This document shows positions 9,101-37,999 of a stretch of DNA of 64,000 bases, piece by piece; within the stretch, counting starts at the first letter, position 1; the number at the start of each line of letters is the position of its first letter. The translations under genes were made by a program, and so were the position numbers. Source of the stretch: Rhodothermales bacterium (GTDB taxonomy: Bacteria > Bacteroidota > Rhodothermia > Rhodothermales > Bin80); the NCBI GenBank assembly GCA_965208025.1, contig OZ242302.1, positions 247,485-311,484 on the forward strand, in the 5' to 3' direction. The notes beneath the pieces were generated by a model. It was not told where the DNA came from. It saw only the letters and a program-made list of their open reading frames with translations, and made no database searches.

Positions 9101-10323
9101 GTTATCGTTTTATTCCCAGAGGGTAAATTATTGTCCTTTGCTGTGATGGTGACAGCTCCAGAACTGGTATGATCACCGGCGGGAATTCTGAGCGTCTTAT
9201 TGGGACTGATCTCAAAATCACGGGGCGTAGCGGGATCATTGGGGGAAGCTGACACAGTAATTGTCACCGACGAGGTGAACGGGTTGCTCAGACGCGCAGT
9301 CACAGCTGAGCGTCCATTTAATTCGGAAATAGCTGGCGGGGTTAAAGTCAGAATCACTTGCGAAAGCGCTTCAGGACATTGACGAAGGTCACCGCCGCTA
9401 TGAAAAATGATGATCGTTCCTGCATCCCACAGATCAAGGATCTTTTTTGGCAGGCAGTTAATGGGATTATCCATAAGATGGACGTTCAAGGTTGGTTGAA
9501 TATCATCAAAGATATTCTCTGGCAGGGTATAAAGAGAATTCTCATTTAAGGATAACAACTCCAAGTTGGACAGTCCATTTAAAAGCCCCTCGGGTAAGGT
9601 AGTAAGAGAATTCTCGTGTATAAACAAGAATTTGAGTCCAGACAGACCATCAAAGAGATTTTCGGGAAGGCTAGTCAGAGAATTCCCCCATAAGCGGATC
9701 CTCCACAAACTGGTGAGTCCCTCGAATAGGTTCTCGGGCAGGAAAGTGAGAGAATTTTTTTGCAAGACCAGCGTTCCCAAGTTGCGGAGTCCGTCAAAGA
9801 GATCTTCTGGCAGTGTGGTGAAGGGATTATAACCTAGGTCTAGCAACTCCAATTTGGAGAGTCCGTCAAAGAGATCTTCTGGCAAGGAGGTAAGACTGCA
9901 ATTGTCTAAGCGGAGGTCTATCAACTGAGAGAGTCCGTCAAAGATGCTCTCTGGTAAAGTGTTGAAATCATTTTTACCTAAATCCAGTTTTTCCAATCTG
10001 GTGAGTCCCTCAAAAAGATCCTCTGGCAGGAAAGCCAACTGGTTACCATATAGATCTAACTCTTCCAATCGGCGGAGAGCGTGAAAATCAAATTCCTTCA
10101 GCGATTCAATCTCCATCGAAGCTAATTCTAAGGTCGTAATTCTTGATAACTGGGCTGTGGTAACGGTTGCACAATTATTATGCGTAATACTTCTAAGAAT
10201 CTCGTCTCTAACCTGCTCAGTTCGATCGCAAATGTTCGCCGTTTGTGCTGAGATACTCTGCACAAAGAACAACAGAAAAACAACCACCGCCATACCCAGA
10301 TATGAAGAGGAGAATCTTCGCAT
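6166..10323 (-). CDS. Giant surface protein: signal peptide + leucine-rich repeats + multiple Calx-beta-like modules + C-terminal autotransporter-like beta-barrel
   Basis: N-terminal signal peptide (LLFFVQSISAQT). About 10 tandem 24-aa LRRs (LPEDLFDGLxxLxxLxLxxNxLTx). Repeated modules end in the acidic DDxxxExxExF signature (IEIIDDRITEPPEHFLVRL, IPLVDDTEEEEAESLILEL, IEIVDDELFEEEETFLIQL, IQILNDEERESEETFQVTL). The last ~430 aa are Gly/aromatic-rich and end in SARINLKW. Confidence 0.85.
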   Translation of the reverse strand: MRRFSSSYLGMAVVVFLLFFVQSISAQTANICDRTEQVRDEILRSITHNNCATVTTAQLSRITTLELASMEIESLKEFDFHALRRLEELDLYGNQLAFLPEDLFEGLTRLEKLDLGKNDFNTLPESIFDGLSQLIDLRLDNCSLTSLPEDLFDGLSKLELLDLGYNPFTTLPEDLFDGLRNLGTLVLQKNSLTFLPENLFEGLTSLWRIRLWGNSLTSLPENLFDGLSGLKFLFIHENSLTTLPEGLLNGLSNLELLSLNENSLYTLPENIFDDIQPTLNVHLMDNPINCLPKKILDLWDAGTIIIFHSGGDLRQCPEALSQVILTLTPPAISELNGRSAVTARLSNPFTSSVTITVSASPNDPATPRDFEISPNKTLRIPAGDHTSSGAVTITAKDNNLPSGNKTITVSGQVANILGLLPPPDATLTILDDDHPVTLKIRSLGVHEGDGIIRVPVEVIPAPTTEVSVRYQTVGQTAEESKDYIPTEGLLRISPGSTMEFIEIEIIDDRITEPPEHFLVRLFEAMGADLDPEQATVTIEDNDEYRLQVDDTEAVEGSMELIFTVTLDAPNPEQVLRVEYATLDGTAMAPADYSSRSGTLRFQPGSTRQTITIPLVDDTEEEEAESLILELFNPDLAILSNNSAIGTIIDDDEPPQISIVPSLRVQEDAGLVSFEVTLSHPAKTPSTTVEFSVTDVSTEKFLDYNVQTQSPLRFNTGQSTQTIDIEIVDDELFEEEETFLIQLTNAEHGDIVQREGRGIIVDNDAITVSIYDERESEEAGSLFLPVRLSQPSSQLVTVQFTSSDVTAHAGSDYTASRGIVIFQRGSTEGKIHIQILNDEERESEETFQVTLSSPKNAILAQETGTGTIVDDDGSASISVQSVTVSRRVALFDLILSNPSPIPVLASYASEDGSALAGEDYEPVAGQVTFAPGEVSKTVEVKLLSNEPLWTAKTFSLVLLAAVNADVHQARTEAVIKEASEESIQNGYVSRVLRTWASQVVVALTRRMEGMAQCHIPEHLTWLRYRSERWYPEQIFSGCGAEFTHGGWSVWGQGAFTHMRGRDGALSLRSDVTTMLLGADYGWHQGWMAGLLAAQSWDQGTYETPTQSGTASSRLTGIYPYVSYQTETGMRGWILLGLGRGETEVETLDSEVDAALVALGLTGTLTGDRAGRLGYEVDAFWATATMENGSDLGVRRIRAGAEGSLRLGRGMEPYMEAALRQDGGDAETGMGLELGGGIRWSTSQLRAEFGGRALLLHTSEGMREWGLMGAIEYGAVGGLGPSMRIRPLWGNVYGGHLWREAPLHSIALGNTDERIEMELGYGTPVRGSLGRSIVGMTLDPRGRAYRVGYNLRMRQGLQFSVATTARTVEENRIPNSYGLSARINLKW

Positions 10324-11338: not shown

Positions 11339-14300
11339 ATGCATAGACTGCCTTTGACATACCTCGGAGTGATCGTCAGTTTTTTTCTGATGTTCTTTGT
11401 GTTGGATGTCATGGCGCAGACAGAGGGCATTTGCGGTCGAACTCCAGAAGTATGGAAAGAGATTCTTACTGAAATTGAAGGTCAAAACAATTGTGCAGAC
11501 GTTACTGCCGACCAGTTAGAAAGCGTTACGAGTTTGCGATTATGGGGGGCCGAAGGGAAGATAGAATCATTGGAGTCAAATGACTTTGCTGGACTCCCCA
11601 ATTTGAAATCATTAGAGATTTCATATCATCCCGATCTTAGTGATTTGCCAGTAAATATTTTTAATTCTCTCCCCTTGGAATGGCTGACCGTGTCGAATAA
11701 TGATGGTCTTACCACCCTTCATGAGGATCTTTTTGACGGGCTTGACGAACTTAACAATCTTTACTTAGATAACAATTCTTTCGCCGAACTACCTCAAGAG
11801 ATTTTCCACGGGCTTGGCAGACTGAAACAATTGAGTTTAGACAGGAATCCTTTCGAAACTTTGCCTGAGAATATCTTTGCAGGTCTCACCCATTTGAATC
11901 GCCTTGATTTATTTGACAATTCTCTTGAAACCCTGCATGAGACTATCTTTGCAGATCTTCGCAGGTTGAAAGAACTGTTCTTACACAGGAATTCTCTCAA
12001 AACCCTCCCTGAGAATATCTTTGATGGTGTCGAAACAGATCAATTTATCCTTCGTCTTACTTATAACCCCATTGAATGCCTGCCTCAAAAGATTCTAAAT
12101 CTGGCAAGGGATGGGAAGATAGATTTATATCCTAGATATACGCCCTGTGCGATTCCCAAACCCATTGTAAGGCTAAAGTTAGAGCTGCCCATTATTATGG
12201 AGGAAACAGAGGAGAGTACGACCGTTACTGCATATCTGAGTGAAGAATTGAGCCAGGAAACGACAATTGAGGTGTCGGTCGATCCCGTATCTTCCACGGA
12301 TTACACATTGAGTTCCAACGTCAAACTCGCGATTGCCGCCGGGGAAACTGAGAGTACTGGAGAGGTGACCATTACGGCAGTGGACAATGATGTATACTCT
12401 GGAGATCGGATATTTCAGGTTGGAGGAACCGCGACGAGTACTGAGGAGGTTACGGGGCCGGAAGATGTAACGCTCACGATTACCGATGACGAAGTGGTTC
12501 CTACAGCCACGCTTACAGTGGAGCCTACCGAGGTTAATGAAGATGCGGGAAGTACAGTGGTCACTGTGATAGCTACATGGGACGTTGTGCGAGATCTTGA
12601 TACGGAGTTGACGATCTCGGTTGAACCGGGTACGGCGAATTTGGGGATAGACTTTGAACCTGTGCCCCCTGTATCTCTTACGATTTTGGCAAATGAGACG
12701 GTGGGAACGGAGACGTTTTCATTCAAACCTGTCTGGGATAACGTTGATGAACCGAGGGAGACAGTATTGGTTATGGGAAATAGCGATTTGGGGGCCGCAA
12801 CGCCGGCCACGCTCTGGCTCACCAATGTGGATCCCCCTCCAAAGGTAGCGTTAGAGTTATCCCCACCCTCCATTCCTGAATCTGGTGGAGAAACTACCGT
12901 TACTGCACGTCTAGACGCCGCATCAAGTGCGGAGACGACGATCATCATCTCCGCAGCTGCAATCTATCCGTCCATAAATTCGGATTATAGACTGAGTACC
13001 AACCCGACGCTGAAGATTGCCGCTGGAGAAACGATTAGTATGGGGGTGGTAAAGATCGCGGCATTGAATAATGATCTAGATGAACCCAATAAGATCGTGA
13101 CGGTGAGTGGCCAAGCGATGAATGCGGACGGGGTAACGGATCCTGAGGATGTAACGCTGACGATCACAGATGATGACAAGGCTATGATTGTCACGCTTAC
13201 GGTGGTGCCTCCCGAAGTACGTGAAGATATAGGAAGTGAAGTGATCACGGTGACGGCGACGCTGGATGTTGCGCGAAGCACCCACACTGACTTGCGGATT
13301 TCGGCGGAATCGGGCACCGCCATTTCAGGAGAGGATTTTATTGCTTTGCCTTCAATCCCTTTGACGATTCCTGCGAAGGAGAAGGAGGGAACCTGGACGT
13401 TTACACTCACGCCGATCGCAGATAACCTTGAAGAGCCTGATGAGGAGTTTAAAATTATTGGATCTACACTTGTGGAAGGTTTGCAGGTGAGCCCAGCCAC
13501 ACTTAAGCTAATTGATGCAGCCCCCATGCCAGAAGTGACGTTGATCTTAACTCCTGAAGCGATTTCGGAAGCTGGCAGTCGCACCCAGGTGACGGCGAGT
13601 CTAAGCCCATCGTCAAGCGAGGAAACGGTGATTGAGGTTTCGGTACTCCCCAATTCGCCTGCTACAACCAATGATTATACCTTGAGTCCTAACGTTACGC
13701 TCACCATCGCTCCAGGCAGATCTGAAAGTACGGGAGAGGTCATGATCACGGCCGTGGATAATAATATCTTCTCGTCGGAGGACAAGAAGGTGACGGTGCG
13801 GGGCCAGGTCACAAATAGGCAGGATGTGACGGATCCGTCGGATGTGATATTGACAATTCTGGATGATGACGAATTCACCGGGGTCACGCTTAATGTAGAA
13901 CCTCCTGAAGTGAATGAAGGCAATAAAACTACCGAGATCACGGTGACGGCGACGCTTGAGGCTCTGGGCAGTGAAGACGTAGAACTGATCGTTTCTGTAG
14001 CGGATGGCTCTGCCGTGGCAGGCGACGATTATCACGCAGTCCGCCCGTTTGAGTTAACGATCCAGGCTTTGGATCTGACAGGCTCCTCAACCTTTGATCT
14101 TACTCCAGTGGATGATTTTGTTTATGAGTCGCCCGAGACAATCTTGATCACGGCTGAAAGCCCTGCAGTTGGACCAGGCAAGGCCGGGACCTACCTTACC
14201 ATTCTGGACAACGATGAATTGATTACGCTGTCAATTCAGAATATTGTGGTTCCCGAAGAAATGGAGACGGTCCAAGTTCCCGTTGAGGTGAGTCCAGCAC

Positions 14301-17300
14301 CACCGAGAGACCTAACTATACCCTTTCAAACATTTGAACTGGATGCCAAAGAGGGAGAGGACTATCTAATTTCTCAAAATTTCTTCCTGATCCCTGCGGG
14401 GAAAACGGAGGCTTTCCTTAACATTCAAATCGTAGACGATCCAATCATGGAGTCCGCAGAGACGTTTGAGATCCAATTGTCGGAGGTGGAGGGCACGGTG
14501 CTGGATCCAGGCGAAGCAGTCGTGACGATTGAAGACAATGATTTGTATGAGTTACGGGTTGAGGATGATTCGGAACTTGAACATGAGTTAGAATTGAGTT
14601 TTACCGTGACGCTGGATCCACCGCACCCCACAGAGACGGTCACGGTTGAATATGAAACGATGGATGGGACGGCGCTGGCAACCGTGGACTATGAGCCCCA
14701 GAGCCGGACGCTGGAATTTCCGTCAGGTACATCCAGCCGAGAGGTAATTGTACGAATCATAGATGATGAGGAGCAAGAATCTCCTGAGACCTTCTTCTTG
14801 CAACTGTTTGAACCCAGGCATGCCGTATTGATTGAAACTGATGCGAAGGCGATTGGGACCATTCTTGATGATGATGCGCCCCCTATTGCGAATCTAGCGC
14901 CTTCGGTCACGGTGCGGGAAGATGAGGGGATCGCTCGCTTTGAAGTGATCTTGACGCATTCACTACCTGGGCGCCAGACGGAAATAAATTTTGACTTCAC
15001 GGATGGGACGGCAGAGGCATCTTTGGATTACAGAATGATTACGGAAAGCCCCCTCATCTTTCCTCTGGGGCAGACTGTGGAGTTCATTGAGGTAGAGATT
15101 CTGGATGATGAGTTCTATGAAGATGACGAAACATACCAGATCCAACTGACGGGAATAAATCATGGTGACTTAGGGCAATCCGTGGGACAGGGGATCATCA
15201 TTGATGATGAAGATCCAGTGACGGTGAGTATTTTGGATGTGGAAGTTACAGAGTCGATAGGGGAGGCGGTATTTCCAGTCATCCTGAGTGGTCAAGACAG
15301 CCGGGAGCGCACATTCACCTTCACAACCATAGATGAGACGGCCATAGCAGGAGAAGACTATGAAGCCATTGAGAGTGAGATCACGTTTCCATCCGGGACG
15401 GTACGCCAGGATATCTTTGTTTCAATCATCAACGATCTGGAAACCGAATCGACTGAAACCTTTCGGGTGCGTCTATCGGGGGATGGCTTGTCTGACGGGG
15501 AGGCGCAAGGAACGATTCAAGATGATGATGCGCCGCTCACGGTGAGTATCTATGATGAGCGCGCATCGGAGGGAGATGGTTCGCTTCTATTGCCAGTCAG
15601 GCTCAATCGGCCAAGTTCGCAGTTGATTACAGTCCAGTTTGCATCTTCGGACGAGACTGCAGAGGATGGATCGGATTATGTATCCTCGCAGGGGATCGTC
15701 ATCTTTGAACGGGGGAGTACCGAAGGCAAAATCCGTATTCAGATCTTGGAGGATTCGGAGGTGGAGTCCGAGGAGGCCTTTCGGGTAACGCTTTCCAGTG
15801 CAAGACATGCGGTCATTGCAAAGAGCATAGGGACCGGAACGATTCTAGATAATGACGGGAGTCCCGGTGTCTCGGTACGGGGCGTAACAGTGTCAAACCA
15901 TGCGGCATCGTTTGACGTGAGCTTATCCATGCCTTCTCAGGTACCTGTACTGGTCAGCTATACGACCGAAGACGGGAGTGCTTATGCAGGTGAGGACTAT
16001 GAACCGATAACTGGACAAATCACGTTTGCGCCTGGCGAATTATCCAAAAATATTGAAGTGAAGTTGCTCTCCAACGAACGAATCTGGGAGGCAAAGACCT
16101 TTTCTCTGGTCTTGCTTTCGGCCTTAAATGCGGACATCCAACAAACTCGCACGGAGGCAGTGATTGAAGAGGAGAGTGAAGAGAGCATCCTGAAATTTTA
16201 TGTTTCCAGAGTCCTCCGAACGTGGGCCTCGCAAGTCGTGGACGGATTATCTCGGCGAATGGAGGGGATGGCACAGTGCAGGGTTCCCGATTTATCGTGG
16301 CTCCAATATCGGACTGAGCGCCGATCTCTGGGGCAGATCTTCGGTCGATGTGGTACACAGTATACACACGGAGGATGGAGTATCTGGGGGCAAGGTGCCT
16401 TCACACGTATGAATGGCAGGGATGGAGCATTGTCCTTACGCTCAGACGTTTCAACCATGCTGGTGGGAGCAGACTATGTGTGGAGTCAGGGATGGATGGC
16501 GGGTCTCTTAGCCGCACACAGTTGGGATCAAGGCACCTATGATACCCCAACGGAGTCTGCTCCAGCATCTTCCAGATTCACAGGCTTCTATCCCTATGTC
16601 AGTTTCCAAACGGGCGCGGGGAGCCAAGCATGGATGCTCTTGGGGCTGGGACGCGGCGATACAGAGCTCAAAACAATTGAATCTGGAATAGATGCTACGT
16701 TAGTTGCTGCGTTAGTTGCATTGGGATTGACGGGAACCCTGACTGGTAGTACCACACTGCGGCTAGGCTACGAAGTAGATGCCTTTTGGGCCATCGCAGA
16801 TGGGGAGTATGGATCGGATCTGGGCGTACGTCGAATCCGTGCTGGTGTAGAGGGAAGTCTACGATTAGGATCAGGTATGGAGCCATACATAGAAGCTGCC
16901 CTTCGTCAAGATGGAGGGGATGCCGAGACTGGGATGGGAATGGAATTGGGTGGTGGTGTACGCTGGTTAAGAAGCAGACTTCATGCGGAGTTTAGGGGGC
17001 GTACCTTGGTGCTGCATACGGATGAGGGAGTTCAAGAATGGGGGGTAATGGGGTCCATTGAGTATGGAAATCCAGGCGGACTGGGGCCTTCCATGCGGGT
17101 GCAACCTCTGTGGGGGAATGTGTATGGCGGAAATCTTTGGCGAGAAGCACCACTACATTCTATGTCACTGGCTAGTTCGAATCAACGGGTAGAGATGGAA
17201 CTGGGGTATGGAACACCGATCAGGAAAAGTCTTGGTCAATCGATCGTTGGAATGACGATAGATCCCAACATGCGAGCCTATCGGGTCGGATATAACCTAC

Positions 17301-17410
17301 GTTTGAGCCAAGGATTCCAATTCTCGGTAGCCACCACCGCACGAACCACGGAAGCAAACTGGACTCCCCACTCGTATGGTCTTGCTGCACGCTTGGACTT
17401 GAGATGGTAA
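11339..17410 (+). CDS. Giant surface protein, paralogue of 6166..10323: signal peptide + LRRs + expanded Calx-beta-like array + autotransporter-like beta-barrel
   Basis: 2023-aa ORF collinear with the 1385-aa protein. It has the same N-terminus (MHRLPLTYLGVIVSFFLMFF...AQTEGICGRTPEV vs MRRFSSSYLGMAVVVFLLFF...AQTANICDRTEQV), LRR block and acidic DDxxxExxExF modules. The C-terminal ~430 aa are about 70-80 percent identical by eye and end in AARLDLRW. Confidence 0.88.
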   Translation: MHRLPLTYLGVIVSFFLMFFVLDVMAQTEGICGRTPEVWKEILTEIEGQNNCADVTADQLESVTSLRLWGAEGKIESLESNDFAGLPNLKSLEISYHPDLSDLPVNIFNSLPLEWLTVSNNDGLTTLHEDLFDGLDELNNLYLDNNSFAELPQEIFHGLGRLKQLSLDRNPFETLPENIFAGLTHLNRLDLFDNSLETLHETIFADLRRLKELFLHRNSLKTLPENIFDGVETDQFILRLTYNPIECLPQKILNLARDGKIDLYPRYTPCAIPKPIVRLKLELPIIMEETEESTTVTAYLSEELSQETTIEVSVDPVSSTDYTLSSNVKLAIAAGETESTGEVTITAVDNDVYSGDRIFQVGGTATSTEEVTGPEDVTLTITDDEVVPTATLTVEPTEVNEDAGSTVVTVIATWDVVRDLDTELTISVEPGTANLGIDFEPVPPVSLTILANETVGTETFSFKPVWDNVDEPRETVLVMGNSDLGAATPATLWLTNVDPPPKVALELSPPSIPESGGETTVTARLDAASSAETTIIISAAAIYPSINSDYRLSTNPTLKIAAGETISMGVVKIAALNNDLDEPNKIVTVSGQAMNADGVTDPEDVTLTITDDDKAMIVTLTVVPPEVREDIGSEVITVTATLDVARSTHTDLRISAESGTAISGEDFIALPSIPLTIPAKEKEGTWTFTLTPIADNLEEPDEEFKIIGSTLVEGLQVSPATLKLIDAAPMPEVTLILTPEAISEAGSRTQVTASLSPSSSEETVIEVSVLPNSPATTNDYTLSPNVTLTIAPGRSESTGEVMITAVDNNIFSSEDKKVTVRGQVTNRQDVTDPSDVILTILDDDEFTGVTLNVEPPEVNEGNKTTEITVTATLEALGSEDVELIVSVADGSAVAGDDYHAVRPFELTIQALDLTGSSTFDLTPVDDFVYESPETILITAESPAVGPGKAGTYLTILDNDELITLSIQNIVVPEEMETVQVPVEVSPAPPRDLTIPFQTFELDAKEGEDYLISQNFFLIPAGKTEAFLNIQIVDDPIMESAETFEIQLSEVEGTVLDPGEAVVTIEDNDLYELRVEDDSELEHELELSFTVTLDPPHPTETVTVEYETMDGTALATVDYEPQSRTLEFPSGTSSREVIVRIIDDEEQESPETFFLQLFEPRHAVLIETDAKAIGTILDDDAPPIANLAPSVTVREDEGIARFEVILTHSLPGRQTEINFDFTDGTAEASLDYRMITESPLIFPLGQTVEFIEVEILDDEFYEDDETYQIQLTGINHGDLGQSVGQGIIIDDEDPVTVSILDVEVTESIGEAVFPVILSGQDSRERTFTFTTIDETAIAGEDYEAIESEITFPSGTVRQDIFVSIINDLETESTETFRVRLSGDGLSDGEAQGTIQDDDAPLTVSIYDERASEGDGSLLLPVRLNRPSSQLITVQFASSDETAEDGSDYVSSQGIVIFERGSTEGKIRIQILEDSEVESEEAFRVTLSSARHAVIAKSIGTGTILDNDGSPGVSVRGVTVSNHAASFDVSLSMPSQVPVLVSYTTEDGSAYAGEDYEPITGQITFAPGELSKNIEVKLLSNERIWEAKTFSLVLLSALNADIQQTRTEAVIEEESEESILKFYVSRVLRTWASQVVDGLSRRMEGMAQCRVPDLSWLQYRTERRSLGQIFGRCGTQYTHGGWSIWGQGAFTRMNGRDGALSLRSDVSTMLVGADYVWSQGWMAGLLAAHSWDQGTYDTPTESAPASSRFTGFYPYVSFQTGAGSQAWMLLGLGRGDTELKTIESGIDATLVAALVALGLTGTLTGSTTLRLGYEVDAFWAIADGEYGSDLGVRRIRAGVEGSLRLGSGMEPYIEAALRQDGGDAETGMGMELGGGVRWLRSRLHAEFRGRTLVLHTDEGVQEWGVMGSIEYGNPGGLGPSMRVQPLWGNVYGGNLWREAPLHSMSLASSNQRVEMELGYGTPIRKSLGQSIVGMTIDPNMRAYRVGYNLRLSQGFQFSVATTARTTEANWTPHSYGLAARLDLRW
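12167..14218 (+). repeat. Intragenic tandem triplication of a ~225-230-aa two-domain module
   Basis: Three consecutive copies start at aa ~277 (VRLKLELPIIMEETEESTTVTAYLS), ~501 (PKVALELSPPSIPESGGETTVTARLD) and ~731 (PEVTLILTPEAISEAGSRTQVTASLS). Each contains ...ITAVDN...VT(G/D)PxDVTLTIxDDx followed by ...TVTATxxVxxxxxxxLxISxxxGTAxxGxDF.... The 1385-aa paralogue has only one copy of the first half-module. Confidence 0.8.
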
Positions 17411-28568: not shown

Positions 28569-29581
28569 TTGAAAGTCATGCCTGTATCCGAAAATCATCT
28601 GAACGTCAAATTAGAACAGTTGGGCTTCATTGATACCCCAATTGCTCCTACTTTGGATCTCTATGAGGAGATTGATGCTCTCAAGAAGAAAAAGAATGCC
28701 ATCCTTCTTGCGCATTATTATCAAGAGCCTGCGATTCAAGATGTAGCTGATTTTATTGGGGATTCGTTAGGACTCTCCCGTCAAGCGGCAGAAACCTCTG
28801 CGGATATCATTGTATTTGCAGGCGTTCACTTCATGGCAGAGACAGCCAAAATTCTCTGCCCCGAAAAAAAGTCTTACTCCCCGACTTAAATGCTGGCTGC
28901 TCTCTGGCGGATACATGCCCCGCCGTTGAATTTCAAGTATTCTGTGATCAGCATGCGGATCATTTGGTCATGTCGTACATCAACTGCTCCGCTGCGGTAA
29001 AAGCCAGAAGTGACATCATTTGTACTTCAACCAATGCGGAGCATCTACTGCGAATGATTCCAGAATCTCAACCCGTCATATTTGCACCAGATCGTAATTT
29101 AGGCCGTTGGCTTGAACGTAGGACGGGACGGAGTTTGAAAATCTGGGATGGTGTCTGCATTGTTCATGAGACGTTCAGTGAGCGGAAGTTGCTCGCCTTG
29201 AAGGTGGAGTTTCCCGCTGCAAAGGTACTTGCACATCCGGAGTGTGAGGAAGCAGTTCTGCGTCATGCCGATTTTGTCGGTTCAACCAGTGGTATTCGTC
29301 GGTTCGCAAAAGAGGATGAGGGCACCTCCTTCATCATTGCAACCGAGGAGGGAATTTTGCACCAGATGCAAAAAGATTCTCCCCATAAACATTTTATTCC
29401 TGCTCCACCTGAAAGTGGATGTAATTGTAGTCAGTGTCCACACATGAGACTCAATACCATAGAAAAACTCTACTCGTGCATGTACCACGAGTTACCAGAG
29501 ATTCGTATGGATGAAACGATACGTAAGCGAGCGCTTCGTCCCATTGAGCGAATGATTGAAATGAGTGAGGGAGTATCCTAA
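28569..29581 (+). pseudogene. nadA: Quinolinate synthase NadA split by a 1-nt deletion in an A7 run (28864-28870)
   Basis: ORF1 ends ...[20 protein letters not shown] then goes out of frame (SYSPT*). The next frame reads [21 protein letters not shown]...MSYINCSAAVKA, continuing into ORF2 (28964..29581). Adding one A restores a single ~337-aa NadA. Confidence 0.85.
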
Positions 29582-29733: not shown

Positions 29734-31015
29734 GGTTCTACCACAATTTGTGTGGAATGAGTATATTTCGGCGAACTAAACCTACTCAATTTCATGTCAA
29801 ATTTCATAGATTTATTTATGCGCTACACTCTGGATCTCACTCCTGAGTGGCAGCTTGACCGAATCACTTTGGATCCAACGTCTCACCGGATTGATGTATA
29901 TCTTCGCCATTCGGGAGAGAATCTTGTTTGTCCAGAAACGGGGGAATCTGGGACGTTGTATGACCACCGCAAGGAGCGTTCGTGGCGTCATATTGACTGG
30001 TGTCAATCCAAGAGTTATATCCACTGTCGTATCCCTCGGGTCAAGTCTTCAAAGGGAATCAAGACGATTAAGCTTCCTTGGGCAGATTCATCCAGTCGTG
30101 TAACCTATGCCTTTGAGCGCGCTGCGATTGATCTGTTGAAAGCAACCAAAAATCAAACCAGCACCGCCAAGCTTCTACGGTGTGGATTTAACCAACTGAA
30201 TCGGATCATGCATCGTAGTGTAGAGCGCGGATTAGCACGTAGGGATCTGGGAGAGATCCCCCATATCGGTGTGGATGAGAAAGCACTCAAACGGGGGCAT
30301 GTCTATGGGACCGTGGTAACAGATTCCACACGGGGGATTGTCCTTGATGTGGGGGAGGGAAAGACCAAAGAAGGCGCTATAGTGCTGTTTGAGCGTGTGT
30401 TTGAGGGAATGAAGGAGAAGGTCGTAACGGTGACGACGGACATGTTAAAGGCGTTTATTCGCGCCGTTGAACGAGTCTTTCCGAACGCAACCTTGATTCA
30501 TGATCGGTTTCATCTGATTCAGGATCTGAACAAAGCAATCAATCAGGTGCGCAGACGGGAAGTGAAGAGCCATCCCGAGTTGAAAGGGACGCGTTATGTG
30601 CTTTTGAAGAACGAAAAGAACCGTACGGCCAAGCAAGACGAGATCTTCAAAGTCGTTCAAGAAGCCAACTTGGAAGTCAGTCACGCCTGGCGGGTACGCG
30701 AAGAGTTTAAAGGGATCTTTGAGTGTAGTTCCTTCGCCGAAGCAAAGAGGTATTTTGATCTCTGGCTAAAGAGTGTTGAGCAGATGGGCGTCAGGGAAGT
30801 CACCAAGGTGGGGGAAAGGTTTCAGCGACATTTTGATGGCGTCTGTAATGCACTTTCCCACTCACAATCCAACGCCAAGGCAGAACGCATTAACGGCAAA
30901 ATTCAAGAAATCAAAACGGTCGGGAGAGGATACCGAACGTTTGAAAAATTCAGAAGTGCGATTCTATTCTTCTGTGGAGGCTTAGACCTCTATCCACAAG
31001 GTTCGGGGTAGAACC
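29734..31015 (+). mobile_element. Intact ISL3-family insertion sequence (1282 bp)
   Basis: Imperfect ~28-bp terminal inverted repeats: GGTTCTACCACAATTTGTGTGGAATGAG versus the reverse complement of the right end, GGTTCTACCCCGAACCTTGTGGATAGAG. Flanked by the 8-bp direct repeat AATTTTCG, and contains a single transposase ORF. Confidence 0.88.
29794..31011 (+). CDS. ISL3 family transposase
   Basis: 405 aa. N-terminal zinc-ribbon-like region (RHSGENLVCPETGESGTLYDHRKERSWRH), then IGVDEKALKRGHVYGTVVTD, VTTDMLKAF and SNAKAERINGKIQEIK, typical of DDE_Tnp_ISL3. Confidence 0.9.
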   Translation: MSNFIDLFMRYTLDLTPEWQLDRITLDPTSHRIDVYLRHSGENLVCPETGESGTLYDHRKERSWRHIDWCQSKSYIHCRIPRVKSSKGIKTIKLPWADSSSRVTYAFERAAIDLLKATKNQTSTAKLLRCGFNQLNRIMHRSVERGLARRDLGEIPHIGVDEKALKRGHVYGTVVTDSTRGIVLDVGEGKTKEGAIVLFERVFEGMKEKVVTVTTDMLKAFIRAVERVFPNATLIHDRFHLIQDLNKAINQVRRREVKSHPELKGTRYVLLKNEKNRTAKQDEIFKVVQEANLEVSHAWRVREEFKGIFECSSFAEAKRYFDLWLKSVEQMGVREVTKVGERFQRHFDGVCNALSHSQSNAKAERINGKIQEIKTVGRGYRTFEKFRSAILFFCGGLDLYPQGSG

Positions 31016-31023: not shown

Positions 31024-31064
31024 TTAAACACCAGTTGTTATAGGAGTTGCATGAACAGGGGATC

Positions 31065-31484
31065 ATGATAGAGTATACGAAATTCCAACAATCTCTGGAG
31101 CGTTTGCGGGAGCAGAACGAGAATTATCAAACCCCACATCCAGCTCGACCCAAGCTTGACCAAGAAGGAATAGCGGAATCAGTGATGCATCGTTTTGAAA
31201 CCTGTTATGATTGTCTATAGAAGGTATTAAAGCGATCTATGGCTGTGGAACTCGGACTAGTAAATTTACCGAACAGCCCAAAACCAATCTTCAGACTCGC
31301 ATTTGAGAATGATTTGATAGATGGTCCTGTTAGTCGCTGGCTAAATTACGCCAATGCACAAACGGATACTTCACATGATTATGATAGTGGGAAAGCTATG
31401 GACTGCCTTTTAATCATCCCTGAATTCATCAAAGATGCGAGCCGTCTTTCATCCACTATGACGGGGAGCACATGGACTCAGTAA
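31065..31484 (+). pseudogene. HI0074-type HEPN (nucleotidyltransferase substrate-binding) gene with an in-frame TAG at 31218-31220
   Basis: From ATG 31065: MIEYTKFQQSLERLREQNENY...AESVMHRFETCYDCL*KVLKRSMAVELGL.... The stop sits where paralogue 32286..32699 and the family have Trp (FGLSWNVLKDLL), so TGG became TAG. The Rx4H position reads QTDTSH instead of RNxxxH. Confidence 0.8.
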
Positions 31485-31792
31485 ATTCCGAGATCAATGT
31501 TGCTCCACAGGATCTGAAGATTCTACGGAAATTATTGGATAAGCATCTTCCTGGTACGGCGGTCTGGATTTACGGATCAAGAGTCAAGAGTATCTCTACA
31601 CCCAAATCAGATTTAGATGTTGTTGTTTTTTCTACCCCTAAACAGCGTCTACAAGTAAGTAATTTACGTGAAGAATTTGACGAAAGTGACCTCCCGTTTC
31701 AAATAGATCTGTTCGTATGGGATGATGTACCCGAGGCATTTAAGATGCGGATTAAATCAGAGGCTGTAATCTTGGTGGAGGGTAAGTCATGA
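31472..31792 (+). CDS. Minimal nucleotidyltransferase (MNT, HI0073-like)
   Basis: 106 aa. IYGSRVKSISTPKSDLDVVVF is the GS...(D/E)xD NTase signature. Overlaps the HEPN remnant by 13 nt. Confidence 0.8.
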   Translation: MDSVNSEINVAPQDLKILRKLLDKHLPGTAVWIYGSRVKSISTPKSDLDVVVFSTPKQRLQVSNLREEFDESDLPFQIDLFVWDDVPEAFKMRIKSEAVILVEGKS

Positions 31793-32285: not shown

Positions 32286-32699
32286 ATGAGTAATTCCAAC
32301 GAGTTGCGCTGGTTGCAGCGGCTGGATAATTTTGGAACTACCTTGACTCGCTTGGCGGAGGCCTGTGAGCGGGAGGAGTATAACCATTTGGAACGTGCGG
32401 GGTTAATCAAGACCTTTGAGTTTTGCTTTGGTCTATCGTGGAACGTACTTAAGGATTTGCTTGTCTATGGAGGATATGATGTTAAGGTACCCCGAGCCGT
32501 TATTCGCAAGAGTTTTGAAGTTGGTTATCTTGACGAGAGTGACTGCGAGGTGCTATTGGATGCCTTGGATAAACGGAATCTGTTGAATCATGTGTACCTG
32601 AATGAGGTTGCCAGAGAAGCAGAAACCCTCATAAAAGATCATTATTATCCAGTACTGAATCGAATCTACCAAAATCTGGACGCCAGACGGATCCCATGA
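32286..32699 (+). CDS. HI0074-type HEPN domain protein (nucleotidyltransferase substrate-binding family)
   Basis: 137 aa. WLQRLDNF start, LIKTFEFCFGLSWNVLKDLL, and an intact RNLLNHVY (Rx4H) motif. Confidence 0.85.
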   Translation: MSNSNELRWLQRLDNFGTTLTRLAEACEREEYNHLERAGLIKTFEFCFGLSWNVLKDLLVYGGYDVKVPRAVIRKSFEVGYLDESDCEVLLDALDKRNLLNHVYLNEVAREAETLIKDHYYPVLNRIYQNLDARRIP

Positions 32700-33052
32700 C
32701 CGTTGCACTAAAAAATCAACATCAAACTGCGATTATCTCAATACTTGCTGGGAATAAACATGTTGAGCGAGCAGTGTTGTTTGGATTCAGAGCAATGGGA
32801 ACGAATACGGTGACCTCTGATGTGGATATTGCTCTATTTGGAAAACGGTTGACCTTGACGGATCAAGCTCGTCTTGTAGCCGCAGTGGATCAAATTCCCA
32901 TGGCACAATCGGTTGATTTGATTTTATTTGATTTACTGCAAAATAAAGCGTTAAAAAATCATATTTTGACCAATGGAATTGAATGGTATCAGAGAGGTGA
33001 GTGTACAACTGAAAAGAATACACACCAATCCGCTTCGGATGGTCATGTATAG
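32696..33052 (+). CDS. Minimal nucleotidyltransferase (MNT) with atypical GF instead of GS motif
   Basis: 118 aa. AVLFGFRAMGTNTVTSDVDIALFG. The 4-nt ATGA overlap with the upstream HEPN gene indicates an operon. Confidence 0.75.
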   Translation: MTVALKNQHQTAIISILAGNKHVERAVLFGFRAMGTNTVTSDVDIALFGKRLTLTDQARLVAAVDQIPMAQSVDLILFDLLQNKALKNHILTNGIEWYQRGECTTEKNTHQSASDGHV

Positions 33053-33295: not shown

Positions 33296-35044
33296 ATGTT
33301 TACTGGTGATCCAATCAAATTTTGGCAGGAGGTTGCATTGGGAGAGGATTCTGCTATGGAATTAAAGGCGGTAGAATTTCGCGGGGAAAAGGTTTCGGCA
33401 CCGCGCCGTGACTCACTATCGGACGAGATTGCAGCATTTGCCAATGCCCAAGGTGGTAGACTGGTCTTGGGGGTGACCGATGATAGAAATCCTCAGTCTT
33501 TGGAACCATCGAAACTTGATGTACTTGTAAAGTTTGTCCGAGAAATTTGTAGAGATAAAGTCAAACCCCCAATTGACTACAATGTCTTTCGCGTTCCCGT
33601 AGAATTCACCGAAGGGGGAGCACTTTTGGTGGAAATCCGCAAGAGTGCCAATGTACACCGCTCTGATGGAGGCTATTTTCGTCGTATCGGAGAGAGTAAA
33701 GTCCAGATGGATGCCGCCGAAGTGCAACAACTTGTACGAATGCGGGGGCAGATGGATGACTCATCCACTGACTCTCAAATCGTTCGTGAAACAGGAATTA
33801 AGAATCTCCAAGTTTCCCTATGGCGGAGGTATGTGAGTTCCAGAGTACAAGACTCACCAGAGGTGGCTTTGACAAAATTAAAGTTTGTCAAGAAAGATTC
33901 AGGTGATACATTTCGTGCGACCATAGGTGGACTGCTTCTTGCATCAAATGACGCACGCGAATGGTTGCCAAATGCCTGGATTCAAGCAGTGGCTTACCGA
34001 GGAAACCGCTTGGATGGGAACAATCAAATTGATTCTCGTGATATTTTCGGGCCTCTTGATCAGCAGATCAGGGAGGCGATACACTTTGTAGTTGCGAATA
34101 TGCGTGTGGCTGCCTACAAGAATCCTGGACGAGTTGAAGTGCCGCAGTTTGGAATCCGGGCAGTTTTTGAGGCAGTCGTAAACGCGGTTGTTCACCGTGA
34201 CTATGCCGTTCGTGGATCAAGGATCAGGCTTTTCATATTTGAAGATCGGCTTGAATTGTATTCACTAGGTGGACTGTCCAACTCAATGACGACAGAAGAT
34301 CTGCGTATTAGCCAGTTCACTCGCAATGAATTAATTGCTTCGCGGTTGGGGCAATGTCATGTGGGGGATATACCAGGAGCTGGTGGACGTCAATTTTTTA
34401 TGGAGCGTCGTGGTGAAGGAATTGCCATCATTGAAGATGAGACCTATGCGTTGACTGGACAGAGACCATCGTTTCAATTGATTGGTGGACGAGAACTCAA
34501 GGTTGTTCTGCCTTCTGCCCGTCTTCCTTTACCCGATGGAGTCCCAGTTTCCGTCATTGTATCCCATAGAGACACTGGCTTACCGTTGCCTGACATCCAT
34601 GTATTGATTCTCAATCCCGACAATACGTTTAGCCAAGCGAAGACGAATGCATCTGGGCACGTTGAATTCTTGATCCATACCCGACTCCCGATTACGGTTT
34701 TTTGTGCTTTAGAGGGATTTAAGGCTCATGTGGAGCGATTCTATCTGCCTGATCAACCGCTGAAGATCTCCATGCAACCTGTATTGAATGGAGGATCACA
34801 GATAATTGCCGATAGTATAGGAAATCTTTCAGGTATCCAGGGAGGCTTGAAGATAGAATTAGACTCCCTGGATCGAACCTACCTCTACGCATTTGATGCC
34901 ATGATCAACGAAGGTGAGTCTCAGCCTGTCCTGTTTGCAATGGATGAATCAATTCAACTAACAGATACGTTTGGTGCGAATGCGATCCTCTGGTTTCGTG
35001 AAATGATCGGAACCTGCTGCGTCTTTGATTATCAATACCCATAA
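33296..35044 (+). CDS. AlbA_2 (Schlafen-like divergent-AAA) + RecG-C-terminal-like ATPase-fold protein with an uncharacterised ~170-aa C-terminal extension
   Basis: 582 aa. N-terminus EDSAMELKAVEF...DEIAAFANAQGGRLVLGVTDD is the AlbA_2 signature. The middle, FEAVVNAVVHRDYAVRGSRIRLFIFEDRLELYSLGGL, is typical of the HATPase_c_4-type region. The C-terminus (VSVIVSHRDTGLPLPDIHVLILNPDNTFSQAKTNASGHVEF) looks like a small beta-sandwich rather than the usual wHTH. Confidence 0.7.
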   Translation: MFTGDPIKFWQEVALGEDSAMELKAVEFRGEKVSAPRRDSLSDEIAAFANAQGGRLVLGVTDDRNPQSLEPSKLDVLVKFVREICRDKVKPPIDYNVFRVPVEFTEGGALLVEIRKSANVHRSDGGYFRRIGESKVQMDAAEVQQLVRMRGQMDDSSTDSQIVRETGIKNLQVSLWRRYVSSRVQDSPEVALTKLKFVKKDSGDTFRATIGGLLLASNDAREWLPNAWIQAVAYRGNRLDGNNQIDSRDIFGPLDQQIREAIHFVVANMRVAAYKNPGRVEVPQFGIRAVFEAVVNAVVHRDYAVRGSRIRLFIFEDRLELYSLGGLSNSMTTEDLRISQFTRNELIASRLGQCHVGDIPGAGGRQFFMERRGEGIAIIEDETYALTGQRPSFQLIGGRELKVVLPSARLPLPDGVPVSVIVSHRDTGLPLPDIHVLILNPDNTFSQAKTNASGHVEFLIHTRLPITVFCALEGFKAHVERFYLPDQPLKISMQPVLNGGSQIIADSIGNLSGIQGGLKIELDSLDRTYLYAFDAMINEGESQPVLFAMDESIQLTDTFGANAILWFREMIGTCCVFDYQYP

Positions 35045-35075: not shown

Positions 35076-36527
35076 ATGAAAGAATCCAAGATTGAATCAC
35101 AGGTTCTCTACTGGTTGAAAACGATTGGTTGGGAAACTGCTCACGGGGCAGAATTCCTTCCGTCAAAATTTGGAGAGGTGCGGCAACAGTTCAGTCAAGT
35201 GACTCTTCAAAATAAATTTACGGATGCCATAAGTACCATCAACCCTCTTCCCATCTCTGCATTGATCTCTGTATTTCAAGAGATTGTGCACTCCTTATCC
35301 GGGAAAACTCCCGAGCGTCGCAATCGCTATTTTCACCAGTTACTTGTGCATGGTATTGAATCCTCATTCTCTGATGATAATCAACGGCTGGTGGATTGCA
35401 TGGCAAACATCATCGATTTTAATGACTCTCAGAAGAACGAATGGCTTGCAGTTCATCAATTTCCAGTCCGAAATCCCCGCAGACATAAGCCAGATATCAT
35501 TCTCTTCGTCAATGGGTTACCTTTGGTCGTCATCAAACTTGTAGATCCAGATGACCCAAAGGCTACGATATGGTCCGCCTTTCAACAGCTGCAGACATAC
35601 AGGACTGATATTCCACCATTATTTGACTACATTGAACTGATGGTGATTTCGGATGGCACAGAAGCCCGCATTGGAACACTTACCGATCAAAAAGAGTGGT
35701 TCAAACCATGGAGTACGATTGGGGACCAGAGTGTGGATGCTTCGCAAAAATCAGGCTTGCAGGCGATTTTGGAAGCCATCTTTGATCCCATTAATTTCCT
35801 GACCTTGCTTCGAGATTTTATTGTATTTGAATACTCTGACAACGAAGCTCCTACGAAAAAAATGGCTTCGGATCATCAGTTCTATGCTGTAAAGGCGGCT
35901 ATTGAGGAAACGCTTCGTGTTGCACAAATACAATCAGAACAAACCCTGTCAGATCCGAAAGGCATGCCTATCAGACATGATGATCATCAGGGAGATCACA
36001 AGATTGGGGTTTTCTGGCATTCACAAGAATCCGACAAGAGTCTGACCATGGCCTTCTACGTGGGACGTCTATCAAGAGAGTACTCAGGAAAGAAACCAAC
36101 CATTGTGATCTTGACAGAGGAAGAAGAACAAAACCATCAACTCTTTACCAAGTTTTCAAATTGTAGAGATCTCTATACTAAACCACCAATTCAAGTCAAA
36201 ACCTGGAAGGCTTTTCGTAGGAAGTTGTCTGCCAAATCAGGGGGAATCCTATTCATCACGATAGAGAAATTCTTCCCCAGCGGGAAAAGTGATGAAAATC
36301 CGCTTCTTTCAGATCGGCATAACATTGTTGTAATTGCCTACGAACTATGCAGAACCCAATATGATTTCATTGACGGATACGCAGTGGATATGCGTCAAGC
36401 ATTACCGAATGCTTCCTTCGTTGGTTTTACAGGCATGCCCGCTGAGCAAAATGATTCCAATACTCGTTCGGTATTCGGAGATCATATCTGCACTTACGAC
36501 ATCCAATCCTCCGAAGCGATGGATTAA
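35076..36527 (+). CDS. HsdR-like protein, truncated after RecA1 and with every catalytic motif substituted (possible pseudogene or non-catalytic derivative)
   Basis: 483-aa uninterrupted ORF with strong HsdR-family similarity (ATIWSAFQQLQTY, EARIGTLT, EWFKPW, KKMA.DHQFYAV, SLTMAFY, QYDFIDG, ALPNASFVGFTG, VFGD.I.TYDIQ). The expected motifs are changed: VIELK reads VIKLV, GSGKS reads ESDKS, TDRNDLDDQL reads TEEEEQNHQL, DEAH reads YELC, GTP reads GMP. It ends right after YDIQ, so no RecA2 or C-terminal domains. No hsdM or hsdS in the window. Confidence 0.8.
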   Translation: MKESKIESQVLYWLKTIGWETAHGAEFLPSKFGEVRQQFSQVTLQNKFTDAISTINPLPISALISVFQEIVHSLSGKTPERRNRYFHQLLVHGIESSFSDDNQRLVDCMANIIDFNDSQKNEWLAVHQFPVRNPRRHKPDIILFVNGLPLVVIKLVDPDDPKATIWSAFQQLQTYRTDIPPLFDYIELMVISDGTEARIGTLTDQKEWFKPWSTIGDQSVDASQKSGLQAILEAIFDPINFLTLLRDFIVFEYSDNEAPTKKMASDHQFYAVKAAIEETLRVAQIQSEQTLSDPKGMPIRHDDHQGDHKIGVFWHSQESDKSLTMAFYVGRLSREYSGKKPTIVILTEEEEQNHQLFTKFSNCRDLYTKPPIQVKTWKAFRRKLSAKSGGILFITIEKFFPSGKSDENPLLSDRHNIVVIAYELCRTQYDFIDGYAVDMRQALPNASFVGFTGMPAEQNDSNTRSVFGDHICTYDIQSSEAMD

Positions 36528-36613
36528 TTTCCCATGAACGGATTGGTCATCATAGAGATAACATCGTGACAACCTATTCTTTGAGGATCCTGTATCCGCC
36601 TCCGATCCATTAT

Positions 36614-36624
36614 GATCAAGCCTG
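36614..36624 (+). repeat. Right copy of 11-bp direct repeat GATCAAGCCTG
   Basis: See 29682-29692. Confidence 0.4.
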
Positions 36625-36685
36625 CGCTAGCGTTTTGGAAGGAAAGGAGATGATCTCATTCATCCAGTGCAGAAAGTTTAGGCAA

Positions 36686-37999
36686 CTAAAAATTTATTTG
36701 GATCCCAAGTGTAGGTTCAAATCTTCTTTGCACTAGGTAATGTAGGCCAGATCCAACAGGTTCAAACGTATATCTTGCCTCTGCCTGAAGAAAAATGGAA
36801 CTCTGGACTCGAATCACCGTCGCAAATAATAGTGCACTCTGTTCAGAGAAATCAGTGAATATATCGGTAAGGATCCGCTCACCTAAGCGATCCACACCAA
36901 TTTCAAGGTGATCAAAGGCGCCGCTCCTCATGAAAAGACGAAAATAAAACTCACTTAACGGTTGGGAGCCAAAGTGTCTTCTCCAGCTGCTCGCAATCCA
37001 GAATGACTGCCCAATCTGAAGTTCAAATTCGGTTAACAGATCATTCACACCACTCGCCTCCCTCAACGTTAAGCCAGTGAAATCCTTTGGTTCAATACGG
37101 TCCAGATCTGAGTCGCCACGAACAATCCGGTTCCTGTGGTTACTCACGCTAAATAATGACCCAATATAGCCTGGTATGAAATGACGACTACTATAGAATG
37201 CCCCAACTCTGAGTCTAAAATTCATGATGTCCAAAAAGTCAGTGCCACGCACATCTGCGCCAAAAGCTAATCCATCCCCAAATTTCGTGTACCATGCATA
37301 ACTGGCATAAGGAGCAAACGCGATTCGAGCTGTCTCAAAAAGCTCACTCTCAAAGTCAATACTCCAAGCTGTCAGTTCAGTGGGGGAATGGTTGACATAA
37401 TTGGCTCCAAGTCTGCTGGTATAAGGGAGATCCAGACTAACTCTACCACCAACTAAGTTGTCCAATAGTACATCAGCGGTAAATCCGCTAAAATGGAACG
37501 CTCCCCGAGTCCAAGCCAGTTCAAGTCCTACGGTTCGCGCATCCCAAGAGGTAGAAGAGCGATAATGATTCACTACATGTCCGATTCCAAGGCGCAAATC
37601 TTGAATGGGCCCAACACGTACATACAAATGATCGGTTTGAACTCGGGCAAATTGAATTAAACGCAATAGATCATAGGCTTCGTCCCAGTCTGGATTGTAC
37701 CGTCCAAGCGGCCCCTGTCTCATATCTCCCCTCAGTTTTACTCCAAATGGATAACTAGCAATCTCAAGGTTCAGTAGTGCGACTCCCCGCCATTGCGCGC
37801 CAATCAGGGAAAATCCTGCCATCCCACTAATCTGTCTATGGGTCTGCCACCGCTGCTTGATAAGCATTTCGGAAAGACGGTTCATGGATCCAAAACCACT
37901 CTGTGCCGCAGATTCAGTGAATCCGATCCCCGGAAAAAAAAGACTCAGAATAAGAAACCTAAACATAATTGAATTGAACAATGAGGAACGACGAAACAC
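36686..37999 (-). CDS. Hypothetical outer-membrane beta-barrel protein
   Basis: 437 aa. Signal peptide (FRFLILSLFFPGIGFTESAAQ), alternating beta-strand pattern, C-terminal ...LGIQINF. Confidence 0.55.
   Translation of the reverse strand: MFRRSSLFNSIMFRFLILSLFFPGIGFTESAAQSGFGSMNRLSEMLIKQRWQTHRQISGMAGFSLIGAQWRGVALLNLEIASYPFGVKLRGDMRQGPLGRYNPDWDEAYDLLRLIQFARVQTDHLYVRVGPIQDLRLGIGHVVNHYRSSTSWDARTVGLELAWTRGAFHFSGFTADVLLDNLVGGRVSLDLPYTSRLGANYVNHSPTELTAWSIDFESELFETARIAFAPYASYAWYTKFGDGLAFGADVRGTDFLDIMNFRLRVGAFYSSRHFIPGYIGSLFSVSNHRNRIVRGDSDLDRIEPKDFTGLTLREASGVNDLLTEFELQIGQSFWIASSWRRHFGSQPLSEFYFRLFMRSGAFDHLEIGVDRLGERILTDIFTDFSEQSALLFATVIRVQSSIFLQAEARYTFEPVGSGLHYLVQRRFEPTLGIQINF

Follow-up and report, generated by a model that had tools for sequence, protein, structure and literature searches.

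An open but catalytically damaged half of a type I restriction subunit in a Rhodothermales genome, with a substitution pattern unlike that of neutral decay

The HsdR subunit of type I restriction–modification (R-M) systems is usually regarded either as a working motor-nuclease or as a pseudogene. In EcoR124I the catalytic residues of the nuclease are D151, E165 and K167 (PMC4454674). A type I enzyme can also accommodate an effector, as PrrC is held inside the enzyme complex (PMC3874165), and bacterial Schlafen proteins are antiphage effectors that are often encoded near defence genes (PMC13056530). Genes of both kinds lie side by side in a 64,000-nucleotide stretch of the Rhodothermales bacterium assembly GCA_965208025.1 (contig OZ242302.1, positions 247,485–311,484, forward strand). 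This whole stretch is referred to here as the window, and all coordinates are those of the window. It includes an open reading frame (ORF), here termed HsdR', in which the N-terminal half of a type I hsdR has survived, with a nuclease-like domain and the first RecA-like domain. The catalytic motifs of HsdR' are damaged, its frame is unbroken and its substitutions are not those of a neutrally decaying gene. Judged from the sequence, its product is on balance probably a translated, folded, non-enzymatic derivative of HsdR, a pseudoenzyme, that has long been held by purifying selection, possibly until now.

HsdR' begins with an ATG at 35076 and runs through 483 open codons to a TAA at 36525–36527. 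An open, HsdR-like frame of this length had been claimed in a sequence-only reading of the window, and the claim is borne out by these bounds and by two Pfam matches: HSDR_N over residues 2–207 (1.8e-37) and SWI2_SNF2 over residues 267–479 (2.8e-41), the latter covering profile positions 1–179 of 221. The PADLOC model REase_I is matched over positions 6–473 of 1029. The NCBIfam model for hsdR, TIGR00348, is matched over positions 2–436 of 674 with 251.3 bits, below its cut-off of 284.55. HsdR' also matches EcoR124I HsdR by sequence, and the same protein provides the best Foldseek matches to an AlphaFold2 model of HsdR' (pLDDT 83), with TM-scores of 0.68–0.71.

The ORF is truncated close to a domain border. 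In the AlphaFold2 model the last strand occupies residues 470–473 and residues 475–483 are unstructured, which places the end of the ORF just past the last element of the first RecA-like domain (RecA1). The earlier description of a stop exactly at the boundary between RecA1 and the second RecA domain is therefore sound as regards the last modelled strand and only approximate as a boundary, given that the SWI2_SNF2 Pfam envelope of a full-length relative extends approximately 40 residues further. The end of HsdR' corresponds to about residue 488 of the 1044-aa HsdR of another Rhodothermales locus, L056. The second RecA domain with motifs IV–VI, domain 3 and the C-terminal T1RH-like_C docking domain are all missing. 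When full-length HsdR proteins from relatives were used as tblastn queries, residues beyond approximately 484 found no match anywhere in the window. HsdM and the target-recognition regions of HsdS from relatives found none at E ≤ 1, so that the reported absence of hsdM and hsdS holds within these 64 kb. An overlapping antisense gene was considered as the cause of the open frame and rejected, as the opposite strand carries only ORFs of 50–60 aa.

The catalytic motifs were compared with those of 119 close HsdR homologues, many of which are fragments. The nuclease motif ELK, present in 118 of the 119, reads KLV in HsdR', and the Walker A sequence GSGKS, whose lysine–serine pair is kept by all 119, reads ESDKS. 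Motif Ia has changed from TDRNDLDDQL to TEEEEQNHQL. DEAH and the GTP of motif III, both found in 119 of 119 homologues, read YELC and GMP (TGMP), respectively. All five substitutions are real and none is shared by any homologue of the set, yet to say, as had been said, that every catalytic motif is replaced goes too far: the motifs are damaged, and the PD aspartate D140, K321–S322 of Walker A, E423 of DEAH and the QxxxY block have been retained. With these motifs and without the missing domains, the predicted product is incapable of DNA cleavage, of ATP binding and hydrolysis and of translocation, and it cannot associate with a methyltransferase core.

Motif Ia is unusual in the density of its changes. 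At 36107–36127 (codons 345–351) it includes a GAG GAA GAA GAA run, encoding EEEE, and at least 9 of its 21 nucleotides differ from those of the nearest related island, L001. This density is far above the ORF average and suggests local slippage or patch replacement rather than independent point changes. Compensated frameshifts were also considered as the origin of the runs of mismatches at motif Ia, EPAMENP and Walker A, and were rejected: the alternative frames do not encode the ancestral peptide, and the runs are thus attributable to point substitutions.

The divergence of HsdR' extends well beyond the motifs. Members of the HsdR family are 66–83% identical to one another across phyla; HsdR' is 47–52% identical to all of them. 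Invariant sites were defined as the 235 alignment columns with a conservation of 95% or more among the 119 homologues, and HsdR' has changed at 70 of these (30%), whereas the other homologues have a median of 3 and a maximum of 21 changes. In the adjoining AlbA_2 (Schlafen-like) gene the corresponding figure is 10 of 212. The same imbalance is visible in nonsynonymous divergence (dN): relative to L001 it amounts to 0.41 for HsdR-N and 0.17 for AlbA_2, and between two canonical copies of HsdR-N, those of L001 and L056, it is 0.20. The long branch and the excess loss of invariant sites indicate that the gene has been released from enzymatic constraint. The sequence-only reading had envisaged a loss specific to the motifs, and this is not borne out. 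Changes affect 17 of 38 motif residues and 53 of 197 invariant residues elsewhere, an enrichment that is weak (Fisher p=0.03) and rests mainly on motif Ia, without which p=0.26, and the rate of invariant-site loss does not differ from one part of the ORF to another (chi-square p=0.75). A strictly motif-specific loss is rejected on these grounds. Nor have the non-catalytic blocks been kept as such, as was also proposed; what has been spared is a residue class, namely aromatic residues, proline and the hydrophobic core.

The simplest account of such a gene is that of a plain pseudogene, which has drifted neutrally since its inactivation and whose frame is open by chance. HsdR' has several traits of this kind: it is unique to one genome, it has no catalytic capacity and lacks half of the protein, hsdM and hsdS are absent from its neighbourhood, its changes are evenly spread, and its guanine plus cytosine content at codon positions 1 and 2 is below that of host genes, as under relaxed constraint. 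Neutral decay was simulated by restoring the 70 sites to consensus and letting the sequence evolve until 70 invariant sites had changed again, under HKY models with kappa of 1, 2 and 4 and an AT-biased model (five model runs, with 7,500 simulations for stops). The neutral path to 70 changes needs approximately 0.16 substitutions per site and entails 7.7–9.6 in-frame stops, versus none in HsdR'. A single simulation among the 7,500 was free of stops, and the Poisson estimate for zero stops lies between 6e-5 and 5e-4. Moreover, HsdR' has four indels of its own, not seen in at least 99% of homologues, and all four are in frame (−3, +3, −3 and −9 nt, equivalent to −1, +1, −1 and −3 codons).

The identity of the changed residues departs from the neutral expectation as well. 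None of the invariant phenylalanines (0/15), prolines (0/12) or tryptophans (0/7) has been replaced, when approximately 11 of the 34 should have been and zero was never reached in 3,000 simulations, although this class was chosen after seeing the data and classes defined a priori give p values of only about 0.01–0.08. Hydrophobic invariants have changed at 13 of 74 sites against 19–22 expected (p 0.007–0.03). Invariant Gly, Arg, Asp, Glu, Asn and His have changed at 42–50%, and charged residues more often than expected. Replacements are also milder than neutral ones, with a mean BLOSUM62 score of −0.29 against about −0.7 (p 0.01–0.03), and in terms of predicted structure 19% of sites have changed in strands, 28% in helices and 37% in coil (p 0.08).

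Sister copies of hsdR in four related islands (L001, L161, L162 and L163) provide pseudogene controls. At a DNA divergence of 3–5% these copies are already broken, yet their motifs are canonical. In the hsdR family, as in this genome, the frame is the first thing to go when a gene decays in the ordinary way, and HsdR' shows the reverse. The original argument that random decay should disrupt the frame before it removes the motifs therefore survives the simulations, the in-frame indels and the sister controls alike. The evidence from stops, indels, residue classes and sister copies leads to the rejection of neutral decay for HsdR'. A plain pseudogene is accordingly very unlikely, and this account could be rescued only by a serious misspecification of the simulations, such as would arise if the majority of the 70 changes predated the loss of activity.

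The setting of HsdR' reveals its origin. The region from approximately 29.8 to 36.5 kb (Table 1) is what remains of a type I R-M operon whose cargo was made up of pairs of HEPN and nucleotidyltransferase (NTase) genes and AlbA_2. In the Rhodothermales loci L056 and L060 such operons comprise hsdM, hsdS with NTase genes, and an hsdR of 1044–1047 aa, with AlbA_2 following hsdR in L056. Both NTase genes of the window are 53–65% identical to the operon-embedded NTases of these two loci, and the one at 32696–33052 is 65% identical to the NTase inside the L056 operon. In the nearest island, L001 from Rhodothermaceae bin80, AlbA_2 is 73% identical without gaps and is followed about 36 bp on by an hsdR with VIELK, GSGKS, TDRNDLDDQL, DEAH and GTP. 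The same arrangement, with AlbA_2 (72–73% identical) directly upstream of an hsdR with intact motifs, recurs in L161–L163, and L161 likewise has an ISL3 gene upstream.

Table 1. Features of the island and its right flank, in coordinates of the window
Feature	Coordinates	Strand	Description
ISL3-family transposase	29794–31011	+	Left island edge, at the place expected for hsdM/hsdS; Pfam DDE_Tnp_ISL3, 1.5e-60
Second HEPN/NTase pair	31047–31792	+	HEPN, 31047–31484, broken by an in-frame stop; NTase, 31472–31792, intact
HEPN + nucleotidyltransferase pair	32286–33052	+	NTase_sub_bind HEPN, 32286–32699; NTase, 32696–33052; Pfam; typical cargo of the hsd operon family
AlbA_2 (Schlafen-like) + HATPase_c_4 gene	33296–35044	+	582 aa, intact, conserved; Pfam
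HsdR' ORF	35076–36527	+	483 aa; N-terminal half of type I restriction subunit, catalytic motifs damaged; without stops or frameshifts
PD-(D/E)xK nuclease-like domain	35076–35720	+	aa 1–215; Pfam HSDR_N; D140 and QxxxY kept, E154K and K156V; 22/86 invariant sites changed
First RecA-like domain	35874–36512	+	aa 267–479; Pfam SWI2_SNF2; ESDKS, TEEEEQNHQL, YELC, TGMP; 42/134 invariant sites changed
Truncation junction	36513–36685		HsdR homology ends at 36512–36518 (tblastn), stop at 36525–36527, then approximately 160 bp without HsdR similarity up to the convergent host gene
Conserved host gene, outer-membrane-like	36686–37999	−	No Pfam family; right flank of variable site

The islands L001, L161, L162 and L163 are 95–97% identical in DNA. 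Their hsdR and hsdM genes are in an early stage of independent decay, through a nonsense codon, 1-bp gaps, a 392-bp deletion, larger truncations and the arrival of IS110 or other insertion sequences, and AlbA_2 is intact in all four. Together they show, as a natural series, how an R-M system erodes while its Schlafen-like neighbour is retained; the hsdR copies keep about 72–74% identity to functional HsdR. The flanks of L161–L164 show no synteny with the window and thus afford no same-site comparison. Within the window, the broken HEPN gene (HEPN-1), which is NTase_sub_bind-like, has its stop at the conserved tryptophan position of the other HEPN copy (FETCYDCL*KVLK, compared with FEFCFGLSWNVLK).

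Homologues of HsdR' were sought in a word-indexed search of 5.8 billion clusters, in GTDB genomes, in JGI metagenomes and in an exhaustive HMMER scan of 1.84 billion representatives. None of these searches returned a homologue above approximately 51% identity over the full length, or one with the substitutions or the truncation of HsdR', which forms its own 50% cluster. A hidden family of similar dead proteins is thereby rejected. The sequence-only reading had proposed to look for homologues with the same substitutions and, should they recur across genomes, to test dN/dS; no such homologue was found. Synonymous divergence (dS) from the nearest relatives has reached saturation (>2 or undefined), in AlbA_2 as well as in HsdR.

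Other degenerate HsdR proteins do exist. Open, full-length homologues of 820–1066 aa with degenerate motifs are represented by P0258, P0384, P0339, P0318, P0285, P0313 and P0314. P0258 (L168:5220–8327; 1035 aa; with ELT, TDAH and TGIP) resides in an hsdM-hsdS-x-hsdR operon and is followed by a 1200-aa PNP_UDP_1 + HATPase_c_4 protein, and P0384 (995 aa; GAGRS, NDAH, TGVP) adjoins an AAA_15/21 + DUF4276 pair. In P0313 and P0314 the nuclease motif is lost and the helicase motifs are kept. These proteins are mutually 32–47% identical, each on its own long branch, and are 35–41% identical to HsdR'; such low mutual identity points to separate events and not to one family. Their existence adds to the plausibility of HsdR persisting in a non-catalytic form. 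A literature search found no description of a selected, catalytically dead HsdR.

A non-enzymatic derivative was among the explanations first put forward for this ORF and is the best supported of them, on the basis of the non-neutral substitution pattern combined with the loss of catalytic motifs. The type I R-M operon, with its HEPN/NTase pairs and AlbA_2, was inserted between nadA and an outer-membrane-like gene. It has lost hsdM and hsdS, an ISL3 element now standing in their place, and the 3' half of hsdR, encoding the second RecA domain and the methyltransferase-docking C-terminus, has been deleted. The core of HsdR' would have been kept by selection after catalysis had gone, presumably being co-transcribed with AlbA_2, and the protein may serve to bind DNA or a partner.

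Several considerations weigh against this pseudoenzyme reading. The even loss of invariant sites and the weak motif enrichment look, taken alone, like general relaxation, and the sparing of Phe, Pro and Trp carries the reservation on post hoc choice given above. The saturation of dS leaves no dN/dS figure for the dead phase of HsdR'. HsdR' is a singleton in the databases searched. Promoter and terminator scans gave results at the level of shuffled background. The ORF was originally flagged for being open, which is a selection effect; nonetheless, the effect of picking an open ORF is too small to bridge probabilities such as those obtained for the absence of stops. Lastly, the target of selection may have been a longer protein, and that selection may since have ended.

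This last consideration underlies the strongest rival explanation, according to which a dead HsdR, full-length or shortened, was long kept by selection, has since lost its partners or its 3' half, and has become a pseudogene too recently for its frame to have been broken. Such a relic is a serious possibility, if a less than probable one. The stop lies 3–5 codons from the end of the homology, as it would if a deletion had joined the gene to unrelated sequence, and the island is visibly eroding, with ISL3 replacing hsdMS and a nonsense codon in HEPN-1. The signal read by the tests of selection has built up over the whole past of the gene and does not tell when selection ended, and P0258, a full-length degenerate HsdR in an intact hsdMS operon, illustrates a possible earlier state. 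On the other hand, the break falls just after the last RecA1 strand of the model and leaves two complete domains, whereas random deletion has no preference for such a point; neither the start codon nor any of the 483 codons is damaged; and the AlbA_2 neighbour is still strongly constrained, so that the transcription unit is presumably live.

The relationship of the predicted pseudoenzyme with AlbA_2 deserves separate consideration. The two genes lie on the same strand, and the coordinates confirm the 31-bp spacing first reported, the AlbA_2 stop preceding the ATG of HsdR' by that distance. AlbA_2 of the window has a dN/dS of approximately 0.06–0.08 relative to the sister copies. One explanation casts HsdR' as a specific partner of AlbA_2, a masking or sensing subunit that would keep the effector latent, by analogy with PrrC in EcoprrI. 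Besides the short same-strand gap, this idea could draw on AlbA_2-type genes being recurrent cargo of the hsd operon family: the gene immediately precedes or follows hsdR in L001, L056 and L161–L163, and is thus an effector gene embedded in an hsd operon. It could draw too on the antiphage role of bacterial Schlafen proteins near defence genes (PMC13056530), on the precedent of PrrC in a type I complex (PMC3874165) and on the HATPase_c_4 protein next to the degenerate HsdR P0258. Against it, AlbA_2 orthologues are intact and constrained where hsdR is shattered (L161–L163; dN/dS 0.13–0.2 between L001 and L162), and AlbA_2 is intact in the absence of any hsdR in L164/L165, where it adjoins GmrSD/HNH and a methylase. 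The unit of the two genes that had been suggested is therefore unsupported as an obligate one. The pairing of AlbA_2 with a dead HsdR does not recur either: in the sister islands AlbA_2 precedes a canonical hsdR, and the two genes are neighbours here through the gene order inherited from the operon, not through a new pairing. A specific partnership is rather unlikely, and a facultative relationship is possible.

The host site of the island is a variable one. The insertion lies between nadA and a conserved gene for an outer-membrane-like protein (OMP; 426/437 aa), and the interval between the two is a hot spot of variation, corresponding to approximately 29.6–36.7 kb of the window, L166:11200–17753 and L167:11281–21281. 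In the closest available genome, L166, whose flanking gene is 81% identical, the order is ABC-nadA-[1792-aa LRR/Calx-beta gene]-OMP-LON-MBL-PorU-PorV. In the more distant L167 a type III-B (Cmr) CRISPR-Cas locus stands beside the same OMP gene. Neither L166 nor L167 has hsd genes between nadA and the OMP gene; an intact hsdRMS at this site in close strains, which had been named beforehand as one sign of a plain pseudogene, is thus not found. The window copy of nadA (quinolinate synthase, 28578–29581, + strand) is split into two frames by one frameshift in an A7 homopolymer (about 28860–28883) and is otherwise 85–95% identical to the intact 334-aa orthologue of L166; it could be a recent pseudogene or reflect a homopolymer assembly error. 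Further upstream, the window carries paralogous ORFs of 1385 and 2023 aa (6166–10323, − strand, and 11339–17410, + strand), which are 30–66% identical to the LRR/Calx-beta/autotransporter-like protein filling the island site in L166.

A broader proposition would be that dead HsdRs are a recurrent, selected by-product of effector-carrying type I operons, HsdR' being a non-enzymatic sensor, scaffold or masker for AlbA_2 which, in a manner resembling PrrC and EcoprrI, has outlived the restriction enzyme, and P0258, P0384, P0339 and others being further instances. This generalization is doubtful. If dead copies are indeed selected, type I operons that have lost restriction become a source of components for other roles in defence, for example in controlling embedded effectors of the kind of Schlafen-like nucleases, and the annotation 'type I restriction endonuclease subunit R' is misleading for such ORFs. 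As one gene in one genome, HsdR' has modest practical weight; it is of value mainly as a specific case open to testing and as an incentive to survey degenerate HsdR homologues at large.

Comparison with known systems places HsdR' at some distance from each of them. Canonical HsdR (TIGR00348; EcoR124I, PDB 2w00/4beb) has the same N-terminal PD-(D/E)xK domain and first superfamily 2 (SF2) RecA-like domain, at the structural similarity already given; its ATPase motifs follow the patterns GxGK(S/T) for Walker A, DEAH for motif II and (T/S)G(T/S)P for motif III. HsdR' differs from it in the loss of the nuclease glutamate and lysine, the Walker A glycines, motif Ia, the aspartate and histidine of DEAH and the threonine of motif III, in the absence of the second RecA domain, domain 3, the docking domain and hsdM/hsdS, and in a score below the NCBIfam cut-off. 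In EcoprrI–PrrC (PMC3874165; PMC2610378), where a latent anticodon nuclease is confined within a type I R-M complex, an effector gene is embedded in a type I hsd operon, as AlbA_2 is here, and the system offers a conceptual model for a masking, non-restriction role of R-M proteins. Unlike the present locus, EcoprrI is a complete, active R-M enzyme, and PrrC is an ABC-ATPase/anticodon nuclease and not AlbA_2, which persists elsewhere without HsdR. The hsdR pseudogenes of the sister islands (L001, L161–L163) have in common with HsdR' the ancestral operon, the AlbA_2 neighbour and a lost R-M function; they combine canonical motifs with a broken frame, whereas HsdR' combines heavy amino-acid divergence with an unbroken one. 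P0258 and the other degenerate HsdRs resemble HsdR' in that their frames are open and their nuclease motifs, ATPase motifs or both are damaged, and differ from it in being full length and, in most cases, in retaining some motifs, P0258 being accompanied by both hsdM and hsdS.

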